Shown: positions 25,468 through 39,746 of the stretch, in pieces
Layout: each line of letters opens with the position of its first letter
Position numbering within the stretch: the first letter of the stretch is position 1
DNA from: Trueperaceae bacterium
GTDB lineage: Bacteria; Deinococcota; Deinococci; Deinococcales; Trueperaceae
Reading direction: 5' to 3'
DNA length: 64,000 nt
Assembly: GCA_034521815.1 (NCBI GenBank)
Contig: JAXHLW010000013.1
Span: forward strand, 768,001 to 832,000
Made by a program: the position numbers and the translations under genes
The notes under the pieces: model-generated
Databases searched by the model: none
What the model was told of the DNA's origin: nothing
What the model saw: only the letters and a program-made list of their open reading frames with translations

Positions 25468-26790
25468 TCACGATACGACCTCGCGCCGCCGGAGCCGGGC
25501 GACGAAGAAGCCGTCGAGCCCGTCCAGCGGAAGGATGAACGTCCCCGCTCCGGCCGGCCGCGCCTGGACCGGTGGATCGACCGCCTCCGGATCGAACGCC
25601 GGGTGACGCGACAGGAAGGCGTCGATGCGCCCTGGTCCTTCCTCCGGCGTCAGCGCGCACACGGCGTAGACCAGCACCCCGCCCGAGTCGGTCAGCGCGG
25701 CCGCGGTGTCCAGCAGCCGGTCCTGCGAGGCCGCCAGGGCGTCCACGTCGCCAGGACCCAGGCGCAAGGGGATCTCGGGATGGCCGCGCAGCGTCCCCGT
25801 CCCGCTGCACGGCGCGTCCAGCAGAACGTACGGAGCGGGCTGGACCCCGGCCGGCGGCTCGCGCAGGTCGGCGACCCGGTGATCCACCTCGAGTCCCAGC
25901 CGCGCCAGGTTGCGGCGCGCCTGGTCCACCTTCGACGCGGACAGCTCGATCGCCTCGACCGCCGCGCCGCGCGCGGCCAGACCCGCGGCCTTGACGCCGC
26001 GCCCGCTGCACAGGTCCAGGACGCGGTCGCCACGGCCGGCGCCGAGCATCTCCGCGACGATGTGCGAGGCAGGATTCTGCGGCTGCACCAGCCCTTCACG
26101 GAACGCCTCCAGATCGCCCAGGCGGCGCGAGGGACGAACCCGCAGCGTTCCCTCGACCGGGCCGGAAGCGACCTCGCAGCCATCGTCTTCGAGCGAGGCG
26201 CGCGCTTCGGCGGCGAACGCGACGAGCCACAGCGGGGAAGGGGTACGCATCGCGTCGGCCGCGCGCTCGGCGTCGTCGCCCAGAGCCGATGCGAGTCGCT
26301 CCCACAGCCAGGTCGGAAGCGACGCACGGGTCGCGGGAGACGGATCGACGGGGGGCTCGACGCGCCTGAGCACCGCGTTGGCCAGCCCCGCGAGGCGGGG
26401 GTGCCGCCTGCCTACGATGCCGACCCAGGCGTCGACCGCGGCGTGCGGTGGGGTGCCGCGGATCAGCTTCTCAAAGCTGCCCAGGCGGAGCGCGTCGACG
26501 ACGTCGCCCGGCAGCCCGTCCGGGTTCCTGAGCCGGGGCGCCAGGGCGGCGTCCAGCCAGATGCGCCAGCGCACGGCGCCGTAGACGAGGTCGGTGATCA
26601 ACGAGCGGTCGCGGGGCGACACGTGCGACCGGTCCAGCGCCCTCCCGAGCTCACGCGAGAGCAACGCTCCGCTGCTGGCGCGGAGCGTCGTCTGGAGCGC
26701 GATCTCTCGGGCCGTCCGAAGGCGCCGTCGCCGCCCGGGAGCGTCGGCCGTCACGGACCGTCCCGTGCCGGTCGCCGGCGACCGCGTCAT
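25468..26790 (-). CDS. rsmB: RsmB/NOP m5C RNA methyltransferase with an N-terminal NusB-like domain
   Basis: LVYGAVRW, LANAVLR, LDLCSGRG.K, LLDAPCSGTG, VYAVCAL, DGFFVA. Confidence 0.85.
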   Translation of the reverse strand: MTRSPATGTGRSVTADAPGRRRRLRTAREIALQTTLRASSGALLSRELGRALDRSHVSPRDRSLITDLVYGAVRWRIWLDAALAPRLRNPDGLPGDVVDALRLGSFEKLIRGTPPHAAVDAWVGIVGRRHPRLAGLANAVLRRVEPPVDPSPATRASLPTWLWERLASALGDDAERAADAMRTPSPLWLVAFAAEARASLEDDGCEVASGPVEGTLRVRPSRRLGDLEAFREGLVQPQNPASHIVAEMLGAGRGDRVLDLCSGRGVKAAGLAARGAAVEAIELSASKVDQARRNLARLGLEVDHRVADLREPPAGVQPAPYVLLDAPCSGTGTLRGHPEIPLRLGPGDVDALAASQDRLLDTAAALTDSGGVLVYAVCALTPEEGPGRIDAFLSRHPAFDPEAVDPPVQARPAGAGTFILPLDGLDGFFVARLRRREVVS

Positions 26791-26795
26791 CGTGG

Positions 26796-27455
26796 CTACT
26801 CGCGCGCGACCATCAGGAAGTACACCAGGTACATCACGCTGCCCGCCGCCGCTGCGACGTAGGTCAGCGCCGCGGCGTTGAGCACGCTGCGCGCGCCGCC
26901 CGCGTCGTTCTGGGTGACGATGCCCATCTCGCGCAGCTCGACGTGGGCGCGCCGGGACGCGTCGAACTCGATCGGCAGCGTGACCAGCTGGAACAGCACC
27001 GCCGCGCCGAAGAGCACGATGCCGACCTGCGCCAGGCCGGTCATGCCCAGCATCAGGCCGAAGATCGCCAGGTACGGCCCGAAGCGCCCGCCGATGTTGG
27101 CGACCGGCACCAGAGCGCTTCGCCATTGGAGCGGCGCGTACGCCTTGGCGTGCTGCAGGGCGTGCCCGACCTCGTGCGCCGCCACGGCCATGCCGGCGAC
27201 GCTGGCGGAGCCGTAGATCGGCTCGGACAGCCGAACCGTCTTCTTGGTGGGGTCGTAGTGATCGCTGAGCTGACCGCGGACGGACTCGACCTGGACGGTC
27301 CCGTCGAGGCCGTGCTTCCGCAGGATCGCCGTAGCGACCTCGCGACCGGTGAGGCCCGAGGTGTTGGGGCGCTGACTCCAGGTGCCGAAGGTGGACCGGA
27401 GGTACCACTGGGCGCCCAGCGTCATCACCATCATCAGAATGAAGATCGCGAACAT
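26796..27455 (-). CDS. YugP-like neutral zinc metallopeptidase (membrane)
   Basis: LSDHYDP, AAHEVGHALQ, TLPIEFDAS, AALTYVA. Confidence 0.92.
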   Translation of the reverse strand: MFAIFILMMVMTLGAQWYLRSTFGTWSQRPNTSGLTGREVATAILRKHGLDGTVQVESVRGQLSDHYDPTKKTVRLSEPIYGSASVAGMAVAAHEVGHALQHAKAYAPLQWRSALVPVANIGGRFGPYLAIFGLMLGMTGLAQVGIVLFGAAVLFQLVTLPIEFDASRRAHVELREMGIVTQNDAGGARSVLNAAALTYVAAAAGSVMYLVYFLMVARE

Positions 27456-27523
27456 GATGTTTTCGTCGTCCTCCTCGTGCGCGGGCCCGCAGACGTGGGT
27501 GCCCGGGGGTCGTCGTTCGGCCA

Positions 27524-27564
27524 GGGTGTCGCCGGGGTGTCGCCGGCGTGTCGCCGGGGTGTCG
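27524..27564. repeat. tandem 11-mer GGGTGTCGCCG x3.7 in the peptidase 5' leader
   Basis: units at 27524, 27535, 27546, 27557. Confidence 0.8.
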
Positions 27565-27618
27565 TTCGCCTCGGATCGTTAGCGTACCTGTCGGTGACGG
27601 TCGGTGACCGTGTTCAGG

Positions 27619-27921
27619 CTACCCGGGTGCGGCCCGGTCGGCCGGCGGCTCGTCGTCCAGGGGAATCGCGGTCGCGTGGAAGCGGAGCGCGGTGCGCTCC
27701 TGATCGTGCAGCTCCAACGTCACGAACGACGGGACGGTCGACAGGTCCAGGCGGTCGTCACGGATGTAGCCGCGCGCGATGGCCAGCGCCTTGACCGCCT
27801 GATTGACGGCTTGCGGCCCGATCGCTTGCAGCTCGACCGTGCCTTCGCTTCTGAGGAGGGCGGCGATCGCACCCGCGACGGCGTTGGGGCGCGAGGTGCC
27901 GGAGACGCGAAGCACTTCGAT
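27619..27921 (-). CDS. spoVS: SpoVS family protein (probable ATC start at 27921; nearest ATG at 27936)
   Basis: EVLRVS..SRPNAVAGAIA, QAIGPQAVNQAVKALAIARG. Confidence 0.9.
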   Translation of the reverse strand: MEVLRVSGTSRPNAVAGAIAALLRSEGTVELQAIGPQAVNQAVKALAIARGYIRDDRLDLSTVPSFVTLELHDQERTALRFHATAIPLDDEPPADRAAPG

Positions 27922-27970
27922 GGCGACCACCTCCATCGGATGGCGATGCGGCAGGCGCGAGCGCCATTCG

Positions 27971-27999
27971 TTGACAGTCACCCTAGCACCCCGTATACT
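27971..27999 (+). promoter_or_regulatory. sigma70-type promoter of the ilv-leu operon
   Basis: TTGACA-17 nt-TATACT. Confidence 0.85.
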
Positions 28000-28007
28000 C
28001 CGGCCCA

Positions 28008-28169
28008 GTGAGCGACGTGGCAACCATCCCTGCAATCGCACTCGGCAACGAACGGACTCGCGGCTTCGGTCGGAACGATCGCGCCAGCCATCGATCCCGA
28101 TCGTCGATCGATCGGATCGTCGGCCTCGGTCGGTACGTAGTCCTACGGTCGAGGGGTGGCGCCGCGTAG
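28008..28169 (+). CDS. putative leaderless ilv attenuator leader peptide (53 aa, ends IDRIVGLGRYVVLRSRGGAA)
   Basis: GTG 8 nt after the -10 box; 3' Ile/Val/Leu cluster with rare GTA and CTA codons; stop lies just before a terminator. Confidence 0.6.
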   Translation: MSDVATIPAIALGNERTRGFGRNDRASHRSRSSIDRIVGLGRYVVLRSRGGAA

Positions 28170-28193
28170 TCGTTTCACGACGCTAGAGTGGCC

Positions 28194-28234
28194 CGCACCC
28201 CGCCGAAGTCCCATTCGGCGGGGTGCGTTGTTTT
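28194..28234 (+). terminator. attenuator terminator upstream of ilvB
   Basis: 14-bp stem CGCACCCCGCCGAA/TTCGGCGGGGTGCG plus TTGTTTT, ending 25 nt before the ilvB ATG. Confidence 0.88.
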
Positions 28235-28259
28235 GACTCAGGGGTCCACGGAGGAAGCC

Positions 28260-29957
28260 ATGAATGGTGCGGAAGTCCTGATTCGTGCGCTCGAACGCCA
28301 AGGGGTCGAGGTCATCTTCGGCCACCCCGGCGGAGCGATCATGCCCGTCTACGACGCTCTCTACGATGCCGATGTACGGCACGTCCTGGTGCGTCACGAG
28401 CAGGCGGGGGCGCACGCTGCGGACGCGTACTACCGTGCGTCCGGCCGCCCCGGCGTGGTGTTCGCCACCAGCGGACCCGGCGCCACGAACCTGGTCACCG
28501 GCCTGGCGACGGCGATGATGGACTCGAGCGCCGTCGTCGCGATCACCGGCAACGTCCCCACCTCGCTGATCGGTACCGACGCCTTTCAGGAGGCCGACGT
28601 CTACGGCATCACCGGCCCCGTCACGAAGCACAACTACCTGGTCAAGAACGTCCAGGACCTCCCGCGCGTCGTCGCCGAGGCGTTCCACATCGCGACCACG
28701 GGCCGTCCCGGCCCGGTCCTGATCGACATCCCCAAGGACGTGCAGCAGGCCGCGTTCGACGGGGGCGACGAGGCGTTCGACGTCGAGATCGACCTGCCCG
28801 GCTACCGGCCCACGGTCGTCGGTCACGCCGGTCAGATCCGCAAGGCCGTCGAGGCCATCAAGGCGGCGAAGCGCCCCGTGATGATGGTCGGCGGCGGCGG
28901 GCAGATCGCGGCGGAGGAGGTCATGGCGTTCGCCCAGCGGACCGGCATCCCCGTGATCACGACGCTGATGGGTATCGGCGCGTATCCGGCCGGCGCGCCC
29001 CAGGCGCTGGGCATGCCCGGCATGCACGGGACCGTCACCTCGAACCGGGCGATCACGCACTGCGACCTGATCATCGGGGCCGGCGTGCGGTTCGACGACC
29101 GGGTGACGGGCAAGATCAGCCGTTTCGCCCCGAACGCCACGGTCGTGCACATCGACATCGACCCGGCCGAGATCAGCAAGCTGGTCCACGCCCACGTGCC
29201 CGTCGTCGGCGACCTCCGCGACGTCCTGCCCCGACTGGGCGAGGCGCTGGAGACGCTGGACCTGAGCGACTGGTGGGCGCAGCTGAACGACTGGAAGGGC
29301 CGCTACCCCGAGCGGTACAAGACGGAGAAGCCGCTCGTCAGTCAAGAGGTGATCGAGCTGCTGCGCGAGCACACCGACGGGAAGTGCGTCGTCACGACCG
29401 AGGTGGGGCAGCATCAGATGTTCGCCGCCCGGCTGTTTCCGACCAGCGAGCCACGTACCTGGATCACCTCGGGCGGGCTCGGAACCATGGGGTTCGGCCT
29501 GCCCGCCGCGATCGGCGCCGCGTTCGCCCGACCGGGCGAGCGGATCGTGTGCGTCGCCGGCGACGGCAGCATCCAGATGAACATCCAGGAGCTCGCCACG
29601 ATCGCCAAGCACCGCCTCCCGATCCTGATCGCGATCGCCAACAACGGCGTGCTCGGGATGGTCCGGCAGTGGCAGGAGCTGTTCCACGCCGAGCGCTACA
29701 GCGAGATCTACCTGGCCGACTCGAACCCCGACTTCGCCAAGCTCGCCGAGGCGTACGGCATCGAGGGTCACAACGTGTTCGACCGCGATACCGCGCGGCG
29801 CCTCGTGCCCGAGGTGCTGAGCCGAGGAGGACCCGCCCTGATCAACTTCGTGGTGTACGAGTCCGAGAAGGTGTACCCGATGGTTCCCTCGGGCGCCGGC
29901 GTCGACGAGATGCTGATCGGCGACCAGGAGCCCGACGTCGAGGAGGCCCCGGCGTGA
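28260..29957 (+). CDS. ilvB: acetolactate synthase large subunit
   Basis: MNGAE, RHEQ, TSGPGATN, GMPGMHG, GDGSIQMN; GGAGG SD. Confidence 0.97.
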   Translation: MNGAEVLIRALERQGVEVIFGHPGGAIMPVYDALYDADVRHVLVRHEQAGAHAADAYYRASGRPGVVFATSGPGATNLVTGLATAMMDSSAVVAITGNVPTSLIGTDAFQEADVYGITGPVTKHNYLVKNVQDLPRVVAEAFHIATTGRPGPVLIDIPKDVQQAAFDGGDEAFDVEIDLPGYRPTVVGHAGQIRKAVEAIKAAKRPVMMVGGGGQIAAEEVMAFAQRTGIPVITTLMGIGAYPAGAPQALGMPGMHGTVTSNRAITHCDLIIGAGVRFDDRVTGKISRFAPNATVVHIDIDPAEISKLVHAHVPVVGDLRDVLPRLGEALETLDLSDWWAQLNDWKGRYPERYKTEKPLVSQEVIELLREHTDGKCVVTTEVGQHQMFAARLFPTSEPRTWITSGGLGTMGFGLPAAIGAAFARPGERIVCVAGDGSIQMNIQELATIAKHRLPILIAIANNGVLGMVRQWQELFHAERYSEIYLADSNPDFAKLAEAYGIEGHNVFDRDTARRLVPEVLSRGGPALINFVVYESEKVYPMVPSGAGVDEMLIGDQEPDVEEAPA

Positions 29958-30481
29958 ACGACCGTCGACGCGTCATCTCCGTCACCGTCCGCGACGAGCC
30001 GGGCGTGCTGGTCCGGATCGCCGGCCTTTTCGCGCGCCGCGGGTTCAACATCGCCTCGCTCTCGGTCGCGCAGTCCGAGACCCCCGGCTTCAGCCGGACG
30101 ACGTTCGTCGTCGACGGCGACCCGGCCACCATCGAGCAGGTCCAGAAGCAGCTTCAGAAGCTGATCGACGTGATCAAGGTCGTCGACCACACCGAGACCG
30201 CGTTCGTCGATCGCGAGCTGATGCTGATCAAGGTCGCCGTGCGCCAGCCGGAGGACCGCGTCGAGATGCGTCAGGTCGCGCAGGACTTTCGCGCCCGCAT
30301 CGTCGACGTGGGCCGCAGAGCGCTCGTGTTCGAGGTGACCGGCGACGAGGGCAAGATGGACGCGTTCATCGAGCAGATGCGCGAGTTCGGCATCGTCGAG
30401 CTGATCCGTACCGGTCGCGTGGCCCTTCCGCGCAGCGCCCAGTCCCAACCTTCCCAGCCCGCTCGCGCCAAGGTGGCGTGA
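29954..30481 (+). CDS. ilvN: acetolactate synthase small subunit
   Basis: DEPGVLVRIAGLFARRGFNI, KLIDVIKV, RELMLIKV, RTGRVAL. Confidence 0.96.
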   Translation: MNDRRRVISVTVRDEPGVLVRIAGLFARRGFNIASLSVAQSETPGFSRTTFVVDGDPATIEQVQKQLQKLIDVIKVVDHTETAFVDRELMLIKVAVRQPEDRVEMRQVAQDFRARIVDVGRRALVFEVTGDEGKMDAFIEQMREFGIVELIRTGRVALPRSAQSQPSQPARAKVA

Positions 30482-30505
30482 CGCGCCCCATCTAGGAGAT
30501 TCCCC

Positions 30506-31498
30506 ATGGCCAACATCTACTACGACGACGACGCCAACCTGCAGCTTCTCTCCGGCAAGAAGATCGCCATCCTGGGCTACGGCAGCCAAGGCCACGCGCA
30601 TGCGCTGAACGCCAAGGAGTCCGGCCTGGACGTGGTCGTCGGACTGCGCAAGGGATCCTCGTCCTGGACCGAGGCCGAGCAGGCGGGCCTGCGCGTCGTC
30701 ACCGTCGCCGAGGCGGCCGCCGAGGGCGACGTGGTGATGGTGCTGCTCCCCGACGAGGTGCAGGGCAAGATCTACCGCGAAGAGATCGCGCCGGGCCTCG
30801 AGGCCGGCGACACGCTGGCGTTCGCGCACGGGTTCAACGTGCAGTTCCACCAGATCGTCCCGCCGGACGGCGTCGACGTGATCATGGTCGCTCCGAAGGG
30901 GCCCGGGCACCTGGTGCGCCGGGTCTACGCCGAGGGGGCCGGCGTTCCGTGCCTGATCGCGGTCCACGTCGACGCCACCGGCGAGGCGAAGGCTCGCGCC
31001 CTGGCGTACGCCAAGGCGATCGGCGGCACGCGCGGCGGTGCGCTCGAGACGACGTTCCAGGAGGAGACCGAGACGGACCTGTTCGGCGAGCAGGCGGTGC
31101 TGTGCGGCGGCGTGACCGAGCTGATGCAGGCCGGGTTCGACACGCTGGTCGAGGCGGGCTATCAGCCCGAGATCGCCTACTTCGAGTGCGTGCACGAGAT
31201 GAAGCTGATCGTCGACCTGATCTACGAAGGCGGCTTCGAGAAGATGCGGCACTCGGTCAGCAACACCGCCGAGTACGGCGACTACCGCACCGGCAAGCGG
31301 ATGGTGACGGAGGAGACCCGCGCGGAGATGCGCCAGGTCCTGCGCGAGATCCAGACCGGTCGGTTCGCCCACGAGTTCCTGCTCGAGAACCAGGTCGGCC
31401 AGCCGCGCCTGAAGACCGAGCGGGCGGCCAGCGACCGCAGCCAGGTCGCCGAGGTAGGCCGGCGCCTGCGCAAGATGATGTCGTTCATCGAGAAATGA
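30506..31498 (+). CDS. ilvC: ketol-acid reductoisomerase
   Basis: [29 protein letters not shown]. Confidence 0.98.
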
Positions 31499-31593
31499 CC
31501 CCAGCGCCGGCGTCCCTCCTTCTTCACGGCCGCACCGCCCCGGTCGCCGCGGCCGCGGCGCACCCGCGACTATCGCGATTCGCGAGCAGCTAG
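31495..31593 (+). CDS. putative Leu-sensing leader peptide [32 protein letters not shown]
   Basis: ATG overlaps the ilvC stop (ATGA); tandem CTC-CTT-CTT codons at 31516-31524. Confidence 0.6.
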
Positions 31594-31653
31594 TCGCGCG
31601 ACCGCGTCGCGACCCGTACCCGCGACGTCGTTTCCGTCCAGACGAAGAAGGAG
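31516..31653 (+). promoter_or_regulatory. SD-sequestering RNA structure upstream of leuA (LEU-element-like)
   Basis: CTCCTTCTTC (31516-31525) is the exact reverse complement of GAAGAAGGAG (31644-31653); three internal hairpins. Confidence 0.7.
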
Positions 31654-31660
31654 CATAGAC

Positions 31661-33226
31661 GTGGCCCGAATCAAGATCTTCGACACCACCCTCCGCGACG
31701 GCGAGCAATCGCCCGGCGTCGCCCTGAACACGCGCGAGAAGCGCGAGATCGCACGGCAGCTCGCCCGCCTGGGCGTGGACGTGATCGAGGCCGGCTTCCC
31801 GGTCGCTTCCGAAGGCGACTTCAGAAGCGTCCAGGAGATCGCCGAAGCCACCGGGGAGGAGGATCCGCGCGTGATCGTCGCCGGGCTCGCCCGCGCTCAC
31901 CGGGGCGACATCGAGCGCGCCGCCGCGGCCATCGAGAAGGCGTCCGCCCCGCGCATCCACACCTTCATCGCGACCAGCTCGATCCACATGGAGAAGAAGC
32001 TGGGGCTCACGCCCGAGCAGGTCGTCGAGCGGGCGGTGGACTCGGTCCGCTTCGCGAAGTCGTTCGTGGACGACGTCGAGTTCAGCGCCGAGGACGCCGG
32101 CCGCAGCGATCCCGCCTTCCTGGCCCAGATCTTCGCGGCCGCGATCGATGCAGGAGCGACGACGGTGAACGTGCCGGACACGGTGGGGTACATGACGCCG
32201 TGGGAGTACGGCGAGCTGATCCGGGGCCTGTTCGAGGCGGTCCCCGGGCTGCACGACGTGGACGTATCGACCCACTGTCACGACGACCTCGGGATGGCGG
32301 TCGCGAACTCGCTGGCCGGCGTGCTGAACGGCGCGACGCAGGTCGAGTGCACGATCAACGGCATCGGCGAGCGTGCCGGCAACGCCTCGCTCGAAGAGAT
32401 CGTGATGGCGCTCGAGACGCGCAAGGACGTCTGGGGCCACGAGACCGGCATCGACACCCGTGAGCTGTACCGCTCGTCGCGGATGGTGTCGATGATGACC
32501 GGCATGGTCGTTCCGCCCAACAAGGCCGTGGTGGGCGACAACGCCTTCGCGCACGAGTCCGGCATCCACCAGGACGGCGTGATCAAGGCGGTCGAGACGT
32601 ACGAGATCATGTCGGCCGAGACCGTCGGCCGCGACGCCGGCGTGCTGGTGATGGGCAAGCACTCCGGGCGCCGGGCGTTCAGGAAGACGCTCGAGGAGCT
32701 CGGCTACGAGGAGCTTCCCAAGGACGAGGTGGACGCGCTGTTCCACCAGTTCAAGGACCTGTGCGACCGGAAGACGTCGGTCACCTCCGAAGACATCCGC
32801 GCGCTGGTCGATGCCGAGACCACGCGGGTCCCGGAGACGTACCGCCTGGTCAGCGTGCAGTTCCAGTCCGGGACGAAGGTGACGCCGGTCGCCACCGTCC
32901 GCATCGCGACGGACACCGGCGTCCACGAAGAAGCGGCGCTGGGGGACGGACCGGTCGATGCGATCTACCATGCGATCGAGCGCATCACGCAGGTGCCGTT
33001 GCGGCTCGAGTCGTACGAGATTCGCTCGGTGGGTCACGGCAAGGACGCCCTGGGCGAGGTGACCGTCCGCGTGCGCAGCGAGGACCGCGTCCTCCACGCC
33101 AGGGGCCTCTCCACCGACGTCGTCGAGGCCTCGGCCAAGGCGTACGTCGAGGTGCTCAACAAGCTCGCCGCAGGCTTGGGCCGGTCCAGCGCAGGTCCGC
33201 GGCCCGGCGCGGTCCGCACCCCCTGA
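31661..33226 (+). CDS. leuA: 2-isopropylmalate synthase
   Basis: [34 protein letters not shown]-terminal regulatory domain. Confidence 0.96.
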
Positions 33227-33230
33227 TCCG

Positions 33231-34817
33231 ATGGCGCGCATCGAGATCTACGACACCACCCTCCGTGACGGCACCCAGGGGCAGGGATTCACCCTCACCA
33301 GCGCCGACAAGATCGCGATCGCCAAACGGCTGGACGCGTTCGGCATCGATCTGATCGAGGGCGGCTGGCCCGGCTCCAACCCGAAGGACGTCGAGTTCTT
33401 CGCGCGGATGCGGGACGTGCCCCTGGAGCGCGCGCGACTCGCGGCGTTCGGGAGCACGCGGCACCGGGGCAAGACGGCCGAGGACGACCCCAACCTAGCA
33501 GCGCTCCTGGCGGCCGACACGCCGGTCGTGACGCTGTTCGGCAAGTCGTGGACGCTGCACGTCACCGAGGCGCTGGGCGCGACGCTGGAGCAGAACCTCG
33601 AGATGATTCGCGACTCGGTCGCCTGGATGGTCGCCCAAGGACGCGAGGTCGTGTACGACGCCGAGCACTTCTACGACGGCTGGCGCGCCGACCCAGGCTA
33701 CGCCTTCGCGACCTTGGCCGCGGCCGCCGAAGGGGGCGCGTCGCGGCTGGTGCTGTGCGACACGAACGGCGGCACCCTGCCCGGCCGGATCGCGCAGGGG
33801 GTCGTAGCGGCGCGCGAGGCGTTCGACCTGCCGATCGGCATCCACGCCCACAACGACGCCGAGCTGGGCGTCGCGAACTCGCTGGCCGCCGTCGAGGCGG
33901 GCGCCGTCCACGTGCAGGGCACGATCAACGGCTACGGCGAGCGGTGCGGCAACGCCAACCTGGTCTCGATCCTGCCCAACCTGGCGCTGAAGCTGGGGTT
34001 CGACCAGCCGCAGCGCCTGGACCATCTCCGCGAGCTGGCTCGCTACGTCGACGAGCGCGCGAACCTGCAGCCGAACCTGCGGGCGCCGTACGTCGGGGAC
34101 GCCGCGTTCGCCCACAAAGGCGGCGTGCACGTCTCGGCCGTCGCCAAGCGTCCCGACACCTACGAGCACGTCACGCCGGACACGGTCGGCAACGAGCGCC
34201 GCATCCTGATCTCGGACCTGTCCGGCCGCGCGAACGTGCAGGCCATGGGCGACGGCAGCGTCGCGTCCGGCGACGGCGGGCGCGACGTGGTGACGCGGCT
34301 GAAGGAGCTCGAGCACCGCGGCTACGCGTTCGAAGGGGCCGAAGCGTCGTTCCGCCTGATGGCCGCCAAGGTCCGCGGCGAGCACCGCCCGTACTTCACG
34401 CTCCACGGCTTCACGGTGGTGATCGACAAGCGCGAGGAGGACCGGCAGCCACACGCCGAGGCGTCGATCAAGGTCGAGGTCGGCGGCGTGATGGAGCACA
34501 CGGCGGCGGACGGCGACGGTCCGGTGAACGCCCTCGATCGGGCGCTGGGCAAGGCGCTGACGCGGTTCTACCCCGAGGTTCGCGAGCTGGAGCTGGTGGA
34601 CTACAAGGTGCGCGTGCTGAGCGGCGACGAGTCGGGCACGGCCAGCGTGATCCGGGTCCAGATCGAGTACAGCGACGGTCGCGAGACCTGGGGCACCGTG
34701 GGCGCCAGCACCGACATCATCCACGCCTCGTACGAGGCGCTCATCGACGCGATCGAGTACAAGCTCGTCAAGGACCGGGTCGTCCCGAAGGGCGACGACA
34801 CGGTCGCGTCCGCCTGA
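33231..34817 (+). CDS. cimA: citramalate synthase
   Basis: YDTTLRDGTQG, GGWPGSNPKD, YDAEHFYDG, AFAHKGGVH, DYKVRVL, WGTVG. Confidence 0.9.
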   Translation: MARIEIYDTTLRDGTQGQGFTLTSADKIAIAKRLDAFGIDLIEGGWPGSNPKDVEFFARMRDVPLERARLAAFGSTRHRGKTAEDDPNLAALLAADTPVVTLFGKSWTLHVTEALGATLEQNLEMIRDSVAWMVAQGREVVYDAEHFYDGWRADPGYAFATLAAAAEGGASRLVLCDTNGGTLPGRIAQGVVAAREAFDLPIGIHAHNDAELGVANSLAAVEAGAVHVQGTINGYGERCGNANLVSILPNLALKLGFDQPQRLDHLRELARYVDERANLQPNLRAPYVGDAAFAHKGGVHVSAVAKRPDTYEHVTPDTVGNERRILISDLSGRANVQAMGDGSVASGDGGRDVVTRLKELEHRGYAFEGAEASFRLMAAKVRGEHRPYFTLHGFTVVIDKREEDRQPHAEASIKVEVGGVMEHTAADGDGPVNALDRALGKALTRFYPEVRELELVDYKVRVLSGDESGTASVIRVQIEYSDGRETWGTVGASTDIIHASYEALIDAIEYKLVKDRVVPKGDDTVASA

Positions 34818-35014
34818 GGTCGTCGGCGCTCACGGCCGCGCGGTCGGCGGCGTCGCCTCCTGCGGCCGTCGACGCCACGGCGCGGATCCGATCGCGCCGC
34901 CCGGACGGCCCGGTCATCGTGGCGACCGTGCTTCGAACCTGAACTCGCGTATCCGATTCGCCTTCGGATCGGTTGGAACCACGTCACGCACGAGGTTCGC
35001 AGGCGTACGTTCGA

Positions 35015-35044
35015 TTGACACCCCACCTCCGCGAGCGATACCAT
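35015..35044 (+). promoter_or_regulatory. sigma70-type promoter of gltB
   Basis: TTGACA-18 nt-TACCAT, about 135 nt upstream of the start. Confidence 0.65.
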
Positions 35045-35183
35045 TCCCGTCACGTCCGCGTCTCGCGGTCCGGCCCCTGCTCCAACGCGCGCAGCGCCGC
35101 CAGCCCCCGCCAGCCTCCCGCCCGAGCGCGTGGGACGCCGGGGCGACCCCCTCGATTCACGACACCGGAGGCATCCCTTGCCC

Positions 35184-39746
<4,563 letters not shown>

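Follow-up and report, generated by a model that had tools for sequence, protein, structure and literature searches.

The question raised by this locus is whether the spacer between ilvC and leuA in a Trueperaceae genome is a device by which leucine sets the translation of leuA from inside the operon. The window, that is, the whole stretch of 64,000 nucleotides (nt) analysed here, was taken from contig JAXHLW010000013.1 of assembly GCA_034521815.1 (Trueperaceae bacterium), and the element in question is the 162-nt ilvC-leuA spacer together with a short leader open reading frame (ORF), called the upstream ORF (uORF) below, which starts on the stop codon of ilvC (Table 1). A real, conserved, mid-operon leader-peptide element is present before leuA. 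The spacer of the window is best read as a leucine-responsive, ribosome-mediated translational attenuator of leuA, for which a probability of roughly 0.6 is given, and simulated ribosome positions support the view that translation of the leader, fed by ilvC, would open leuA in the window.

Leader frame and Shine-Dalgarno helix in the spacer

The ATG of the uORF overlaps the TGA stop codon of ilvC (ATGA at 31495-98, TGA at 31496-98), and codons 8-10 of the uORF are CTC-CTT-CTT (31516-24). Both the overlapping ATG with its 32-codon frame and this Leu run had been pointed out in the initial annotation of the DNA and were found again in the sequence. The three Leu codons with one additional C make up CTCCTTCTTC, which is the exact reverse complement of the Shine-Dalgarno (SD) region of leuA, GAAGAAGGAG, and the latter ends 7 nt upstream of the GTG of leuA (31661). 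This complementarity, likewise claimed at the outset, held: none of 1000 dinucleotide-shuffled versions of the upstream spacer contained a perfect 10-nt complement to the 25-nt SD window (mean 5.2, maximum 9). The duplex energy was matched by 143 of 1000 shuffles and is uninformative because of the content of guanine plus cytosine (GC) of 71%; in the same way, the difference between cognate and non-cognate SD/upstream duplexes (-21.3 versus -16.7 kcal/mol) is confounded by GC content.

The fold of the spacer was computed with ViennaRNA (a model without pseudoknots) and gave a minimum free energy (MFE) of -79.7 kcal/mol (z = -2.77), which was equalled by 2 of 200 shuffles. The 10-bp helix 31516-25/31644-53 is present in the MFE structure with pair probabilities from 0.93 to 1.0, and the SD region is paired with a mean probability of 0.997, so that the check by RNA folding proposed in the annotation came out in its favour. 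Since two outer 4-bp helices extend the 10-bp helix outward, the GTG start codon of leuA is predicted to be buried as well. The interior of the helix is folded as three nested hairpins. Three had also been drawn by eye; two of these recur within 1 nt (31566-72/31591-97 and 31606-11/31621-26), and the first is replaced by 31528-33/31549-54. The suggested extension of the helix through ACGG/CCGT can be read in the letters at 31526-29/31634-37 and is seen in a two-strand duplex fold, and it is absent from the MFE structure.

A terminator-like site was searched for in 31499-31660 and none was obtained, as the annotation had stated, while the same scan did detect the site at 28194-28227, the only strong one in 27400-35200. 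The spacer is single-copy, with no second copy elsewhere in the genome, by which a repeat or mobile element was ruled out as its identity. An RNA-library contig (X16, 190 nt, 13 differences, none of them listed at 31567-72) covers 31492-31681, which is no proof of transcription; further RNA and DNA contigs of relatives omit 135 or 251 nt of the spacer.

Conservation of the leader in the genus and in the family

Eleven genomes of the same genus were compared, in which the ilvC-leuA spacer is 141-162 nt long in seven, 28-34 nt in three and 81 nt in one. MAFFT alignments misaligned the SD and CGACTA in divergent loci; therefore neither RNAalifold nor structure-pair counting was used, and the loci were anchored on motifs by script. 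All seven long spacers have an overlap start (ATGA or GTGA) with an open frame, CGACTA in frame 0 (offsets 72, 72, 72, 72, 81, 84 and 78), and a segment at leader nt ~7-44 (the first ~15 codons of the uORF) that can pair with the ribosome binding site (RBS) of leuA at -20 to -37 kcal/mol. The SD core of the stem is fixed in these seven loci, and the flanks differ and compensate (UUC/GAA, GC/GC, CCC/GGG, GGUCGUCG/CGACGACC and GGUGGUC/GACCGCC). The Leu run is unstable, being present as in-frame CUC-CUU in five of the seven (L001-L005), as one CUU in L006 and not at all in L007; the third CUU is found in the window only. Of what the initial annotation had expected from a comparison of spacers, the overlap start and the compensating stem flanks were thus recovered, and the conservation of the Leu run was not.

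For the family-wide survey, a leuA N-terminal query gave a match in 119 of the 128 Trueperaceae genomes, and the upstream region was examined in 118. A leader was counted when the spacer held an ORF from start to stop with at least 6 codons ahead of an in-frame CGA-CUN. Of the 118 regions, 38 contained such a leader; the reverse complement, taken as control, gave 1 of 118. All 38 lie within the 58 loci that have a spacer of at least 100 nt or no ilvC found upstream (0 of 60 for the shorter spacers), and they are spread over 17 of 34 genera. The leader element is not a one-off and is widespread in the Trueperaceae.

The setting of the pair was described separately for GC-rich and lower-GC genera. 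In the GC-rich loci (14 of 14, from 4 genera), the stop codon of ilvC is overlapped by ATGA or GTGA and the frame is open through CGA-CUA, the offsets of the in-frame CGACTA being 72, 72, 72, 72, 81, 84, 78, 75, 75, 57, 75, 72, 51 and 27, all of them multiples of 3 and eight of them different. In the lower-GC genera the pair closes a peptide motif, RRL(G/T)NNxRL (for example MRLERPQKHLNLNRRLGNNQRLR and VRVEGTFLIGNNLRLP, each followed by a stop codon). Among the 19 loci with the GNN motif, all from low-GC genera, the RRL(G/T)NN block varies mainly at third positions, with Arg taken from both CGN and AGR codons, and its mean entropy at codon positions 1, 2 and 3 is about 0.91, 0.58 and 1.36, respectively (averages of per-position entropies). 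The closing pair of the same loci is fixed at all three positions (CGA 19/19, CUA 18/19), and over 40 loci CGA is found in 40 and CUA in 38.

These counts bear directly on the reading that the locus has no function and combines a chance open frame in GC-rich DNA with a chance complementarity. Long open frames are indeed common at 71% GC, and the composition of the uORF is not gene-like; set against this, no shuffle reached 10 nt, CGACTA is expected only 0.019 times per spacer, leaders were counted in 38 regions versus 1 in the control, the variation falls on synonymous sites, and the frame is kept in 14 of 14 GC-rich loci. The comparative data already contradict this reading, which is scarcely credible.

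Codon usage gives the pair its likely meaning. In the 71% GC genome of the window, CUA accounts for 1.08% of Leu codons and CGA for 9.7% of Arg codons (1355 long ORFs), and tRNA-Leu(UAG) has one gene. Six leaders of ilvB attenuators in the family (that of the window and those of five other genomes) together contain 23 Leu codons, of which 16 are CUA. The Salmonella leu attenuator uses CUA control codons, and their exchange for CUG lowered the sensitivity of the system (PMC1183508). Because CUA is rare in the genome, is favoured in the ilvB attenuators and has this enterobacterial leu precedent, the invariant CUA may be taken as a candidate leucine control codon across the family. The annotation, which placed the sensor in the Leu run, had overlooked the pair at 31567-72.

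The same hexamer could instead be the site of a factor acting in trans: CGACUA, in or beside a small hairpin loop, would be bound by a protein or, in a T-box-like manner, by the anticodon of tRNA-Leu(UAG), and the ORF would be incidental. This would fit the invariance of CGACUA at the nucleotide level, and a stem of at least 4 bp with ACUA in the loop was found in 12 of 40 loci, compared with 5.5 expected from permuted flanks (P = 0.001, uncorrected for relatedness). The authors of the work on the actinobacterial LEU element also favoured a protein for that element (PMC1262725). In the ACUA-loop register, 23 of the 40 loci have less than 3 bp. An Rfam scan of 26000-36000 (E up to 10) gave nothing credible and no match to the T-box covariance model, the sole match in the spacer being ASdes on the minus strand (17.8 bits against a gathering score of 40, E 4.8). 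Moreover, a binding site would require neither the three-base periodicity of the conservation upstream of it, with both Arg codon families in use, nor a frame kept to the start codon in 38 loci versus 1 in the control over eight different offsets. A trans-acting factor is on these grounds quite unlikely.

Several loci fall outside the counting rule. Six have CG[C/G/U]-CUA in place of CGA-CUN. In L108 and L110 the spacer contains no stop for the leader (MLMLVRRLGNNQRLS..), which runs over the SD and the start of leuA in a different frame and would represent a variant of coupling. L072, from a complete 3.26-Mb genome (G138), has ..PNNLRL.., in which the pair reads CGA-CUC and which closely follows an in-frame TGA; it has one extra base compared with L069 and looks like a decayed leader. 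CGA-CUA occurs twice in frame in the leader of L060 (G130; ..TSQRLAWLRLGERL..), a locus with no ilvC within 500 nt upstream.

The distance from CUA to the stop codon of the leader varies from 1 to more than 15 codons. UAG is usually a rare stop codon in GC-rich genomes; it ends the leader in many loci of the family (often as CUA-NNN-UAG) and pairs with the CUA codon in L001 and L002. As a separate observation, the leader of L075, L026, L071, L080, L082 and L089 is bordered, on one side or on both, by runs of 7-nt repeats (such as CAGCTAT/CAGCCGT and TGATTAG/TGGTGAG) that are able to pair with one another.

Outside the family, the strict DNA pattern CGNMGNCTNGGNAAYAAYNNNCGACTA, which is blind to GC-rich variants, was scanned over 185,579 species genomes (one per prokaryote species) and gave 7 matches, namely 5 Trueperaceae metagenome-assembled genomes, 1 contig labelled 'uncultured bacterium' and 1 from the Planctomycetia. 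The last was rejected as a leader, since it lies antisense inside a 363-amino-acid ORF and is a chance match. A full-text search of the literature returned no paper on the RRLGNNxRL/CGA-CUA leader-peptide family, nor on such a leader in Deinococcota.

Simulated ribosome positions and the proposed control of leuA

The effect of a ribosome on the leader was simulated for 30 loci in an equilibrium model, in which a 30-nt footprint was forced unpaired at successive A-site positions. For the simulation and the cross-genus folds, the first leuA codons of each locus were replaced by a short generic leuA start; the fold of the window itself was computed separately. At baseline the SD of L001-L006 is shut (0.00-0.17 unpaired), and only a footprint over the anti-SD, at 33-72 nt upstream of CUA, opens it, to 0.34-0.83. 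In the window, placing the A site on CUC, CUU or CUU raises SD accessibility from 0.00 to 0.40-0.44. The claim that a ribosome held on the Leu run unmasks the SD is therefore backed by the model for the window, although the run itself is not conserved. A single CUA-stalled ribosome was rejected by the simulation as the opener of the SD in the genus of the window.

The anti-SD at Leu codons of the uORF, as annotated, is not general: in other genera it precedes the uORF or falls on a different codon. In two loci, L070 and L064, it shares nucleotides with CUA, and a ribosome at that codon makes the SD accessible in the model (from 0.00 to 0.97 and from 0.20 to 0.27-0.66, respectively). In L026, L071, L075, L080 and L089 it lies just upstream of the leader's own RBS, and a single long stem covers the SDs of both leader and leuA. 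The coupling of the conserved sensor to its output thus varies between genera.

For the window, the following course of events is proposed. Ribosomes finishing ilvC would reinitiate at the overlapping ATG and translate the 32-codon leader. In the free RNA, leader nt ~12-31 (31506-25, including CUC-CUU-CUU) would pair with the SD and the GTG of leuA and shut both; passage of a ribosome over 31506-25 would open the leuA site, and a longer dwell or a queue would allow more frequent initiation at leuA. Leucine would be read at the Leu codons. In the lineage of the window the CUC-CUU-CUU run lies inside the anti-SD and would prolong the opening under starvation, and the family-wide sensor would be CGA-CUA (31567-72), where scarcity of charged tRNA-Leu(UAG) would hold the leading ribosome. 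Further ribosomes from ilvC would stack back over the anti-SD, 45-54 nt upstream of CGA-CUA, a gap that a queue of about three ribosomes would span; we infer that queueing of this kind links the stall at CUA to the anti-SD. With ample leucine the leader would be cleared, the stem would re-form, and leuA, and probably the adjoining cimA, would be little translated.

A constitutive coupling device makes use of the same parts. The leader would then relay the ribosomes of ilvC and melt the SD stem, so that leuA tracks ilvC with no sensing of leucine. The conserved overlap start, the opening of the SD only with the first ~15 codons of the leader occupied, and the lack of conservation of the Leu run are what such a device predicts, and a classical attenuator (27971-28227) is already present in the operon. 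It leaves unexplained, however, why CGA-CUA is invariant at all three codon positions in 17 genera and why the family prefers CUA in its attenuators, and it has no need of a structured leader of 100 nt, given that relatives cope with 28-34 nt or with overlapping genes. Coupling without sensing is therefore considered unlikely.

The output might also be transcription of leuA and not its translation, if occupancy of the leader gated the access of Rho to C-rich RNA past the leader stop. The spacer has no intrinsic terminator, and C-rich, G-poor tracts past the leader stop were seen by eye, without quantification, in the GC-rich L004, L044, L053 and L055. The corresponding part of the window is G-rich and fully structured, and low-GC members of the family have no C-rich tract. 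Since a ribosome held at CUA leaves the downstream RNA exposed, Rho-dependent polarity also predicts the wrong sign of regulation, and we hold it to be very unlikely.

Several findings weigh against leucine-responsive translational attenuation in the window. With a single ribosome at CUA the SD of the window stays shut (0.00 to 0.00). Of the 38 family loci, only 7 have a long perfect anti-SD that is significant, and the SD is half-open at baseline in many loci, so that SD sequestration has to be regarded as a feature of the lineage, not as the common denominator of the family. Three genomes of the same genus (L008, L009 and L010) have a spacer of 28-34 nt, an ilvC ending in TAG and no leader; the element is hence dispensable and was lost, or never gained, in these close relatives. 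The peptide motif is weak in the window (only ..AAAAHPR-L), and the uORF is not gene-like in composition (GC at codon positions 1, 2 and 3 of 0.81, 0.75 and 0.81, compared with 0.70, 0.41 and 0.96 in ilvC), a coding-type signature at third positions having been looked for in the uORF and found absent. For the analogous actinobacterial LEU element, mutation of the Leu codons left regulation in Streptomyces unchanged, as reported in PMC1262725 with reference to Craster 1999. Finally, translation of the leader, stalling and the response to leucine are steps that we infer.

A further, tentative reading concerns the peptide itself. RRL(G/T)NNxR-L could be a new nascent-peptide arrest module, in which ..NNxR (CGA) in the P site slows the decoding of CUA or ties it to charged tRNA-Leu(UAG), so that one codon would suffice as a leucine sensor. 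It would be wired to at least three RNA outputs across genera, the anti-SD lying at the stall codon, 5' of the RBS of the leader, or within the first codons of a leader fed by ilvC. This is a possibility we regard with some doubt.

Gene setting, other leaders and known systems

The genes ilvB, ilvC, leuA and cimA were assigned by NCBIfam equivalog matches, all above the respective cut-off; ilvN, looked for among the flanking genes, was not identified by these models. The coordinates are collected in Table 1.

Table 1. Features of the ilvC-leuA spacer and of its surroundings, in positions of the window.
Feature	Position	Strand	Basis or remark
Leader ORF (uORF), 32 codons	31495-31593	+	sequence; ATG 31495-97, stop TAG 31591-93
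Anti-SD CTCCTTCTTC (CTC CTT CTT + C)	31516-31525	+	exact reverse complement of 31644-53
leuA SD region GAAGAAGGAG	31644-31653	+	mean paired probability 0.997; unpaired probability 0.00
Outer 5' arm (GCCG, CGUC)	31506-31514	+	pairs with 31658-31665, including leuA GTG; MFE helices 31506-09/31662-65 and 31511-14/31658-61
Internal hairpin A	31528-31554	+	MFE helices 31528-33/31549-54 and 31534-37/31541-44
Internal hairpin B, holding CGA-CUA	31555-31605	+	GCGACUA (31566-72) pairs with UAGUCGC (31591-97), including the uORF stop codon
CGA-CUA (Arg-Leu), uORF codons 25-26	31567-31572	+	invariant rare codon pair of the family, candidate leucine control codon
Internal hairpin C	31606-31626	+	MFE helix 31606-11/31621-26
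ilvC (ketol-acid reductoisomerase)	30506-31498	+	NCBIfam NF004017, 547.7 bits, cut-off 336
leuA (2-isopropylmalate synthase), GTG start at 31661	31661-33226	+	NF002086, 760.9 bits, cut-off 532; TIGR00973, 704.4 bits, cut-off 598.7
cimA (citramalate synthase)	33231-34817	+	TIGR00977, 680.5 bits, cut-off 450; 4 nt 3' of the leuA stop
Classical transcription attenuator ahead of ilvB	27971-28227	+	promoter-like site, leader ORF, terminator hairpin
Promoter-like site TTGACA-17-TATACT	27971-27999	+	sequence
ilvB leader ORF, 53 codons	28008-28169	+	sequence; ends ..IDRIVGLGRYVVLRSRGGAA before the stop
Terminator, 14-bp GC hairpin then T run	28194-28227	+	terminator scan

Given the attenuator ahead of ilvB, the true start of ilvB is probably near 28255, 3' of the terminator, rather than at 28188. 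Within the ilvB leader, 28039-28059 reads CTC GGC AAC GAA CGG ACT C (..LGNERT..) and resembles CTC GGC AAC AAC NNN CGA CTA of the leuA leaders, which could be chance or common descent. Upstream of ilvB in five other genomes of the family (L140-L144), leader peptides rich in Ile, Val and Leu are each followed by a terminator, with 6 CUA codons in L144 alone. Attenuators of the classical type also stand before leuA elsewhere. In L135 (G112), where leuA has no ilvC upstream, a promoter-like site of its own is followed by the leader MIPQCANVSLVLALTIRGSAG with two CTA codons and a stop, and by a terminator hairpin with a T run. In the sister family f2 (L015, L016, L020 and L023), where leuA does not stand behind ilvC, such an attenuator lies ~130-170 nt upstream of leuA, with CTT-run leaders (MTAFSLLLNRPPVE, MNAFGLLLLTRPPVE, MSARGLLLLSLPPVE and MFTFGLLLGVPPVE, each to its stop codon) and then a GC hairpin and a T run.

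Leader-peptide attenuation is textbook knowledge for the 5' leaders of Proteobacteria and Firmicutes. In the Trueperaceae the same logic would operate inside an operon, with a leader fed by the ribosomes that leave the upstream gene, and a leucine-specific valve for the leuA-cimA branch would sit below the shared attenuator for Ile, Val and Leu. The genera of the family would offer a natural set of cases where a common sensor feeds different RNA outputs, and the fixed synonymous choice of CGA-CUA makes the leader reading sharply testable by synonymous swaps. The architecture is known from the LEU element, the long-doubted leader-peptide reading of which would receive indirect support; the mid-operon position coupled to ilvC sets the Trueperaceae element apart from it.

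The actinobacterial LEU element was described by Seliverstov, Putzer, Gelfand and Lyubetsky in 2005 upstream of leuA, with a candidate leader ORF, a compact fold closed by a base stem in which a Leu-codon run pairs with the SD, and a conserved pseudoknot inside this stem; the authors doubted attenuation by a leader peptide and proposed a protein (PMC1262725). The likeness noted in the initial annotation is justified at the level of architecture: the Trueperaceae element also lies directly upstream of leuA, has a leader ORF with a Leu run and a base stem between this run and the SD, and has no terminator, as is described for LEU (PMC1262725). The Leu run of the window agrees with that description and is kept in the genus only as CUC-CUU in five of seven loci. 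Unlike LEU, which on that account is found in 5' leaders of Actinobacteria, the Trueperaceae element is intercistronic, starts on the stop codon of ilvC and belongs to Deinococcota. LEU is, moreover, defined by its conserved pseudoknot (PMC1262725), whereas the likeness here is one of architecture, seen in pseudoknot-free folds.

With the enterobacterial leuL attenuator (PMC1183508), the element shares a leader peptide in which rare CUA codons would read the leucine supply. leuL stands at the 5' end of its operon, works on transcription by way of a terminator and an antiterminator, and contains several Leu codons in a row; the Trueperaceae element, in contrast, has a single conserved CUA after CGA, no terminator, SD sequestration and a mid-operon position. 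Of the parts of a classical transcription attenuator, leader Leu codons (CUC, CUU, CUU and CUA) are present and an intrinsic terminator is absent in 31499-31660. The leuA attenuator of f2 has the same target gene and a leader with a rare Leu run (CTT CTT CTT, as in MTAFSLLLNRPPVE), and it differs by its GC hairpin with a T run and by having no ilvC before leuA, no CGA-CUA and no RRLGNN.

The arrest peptides TnaC and SpeFL halt the ribosome at their stop codon, or beside it, when a free ligand binds. The Trueperaceae leaders resemble them in being short and, in the 19 loci of low-GC genera, in having a conserved amino-acid sequence near the predicted stall site, of which the leader of the window shows only ..AAAAHPR-L; they differ in the distance from CUA to the stop, which varies from 1 to more than 15 codons, and arrest in them is a prediction. 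In translational attenuation of the ermC/cat type, the SD of a gene is masked in a helix until a ribosome halted on a short ORF ahead of it melts that helix, the step proposed here for leuA. The ermC and cat leaders sense an antibiotic via the nascent peptide and their stall site adjoins the helix, whereas in the Trueperaceae element the presumed signal is the charging of tRNA-Leu and, in the genus of the window, the conserved candidate stall codon lies 45-54 nt from the anti-SD.

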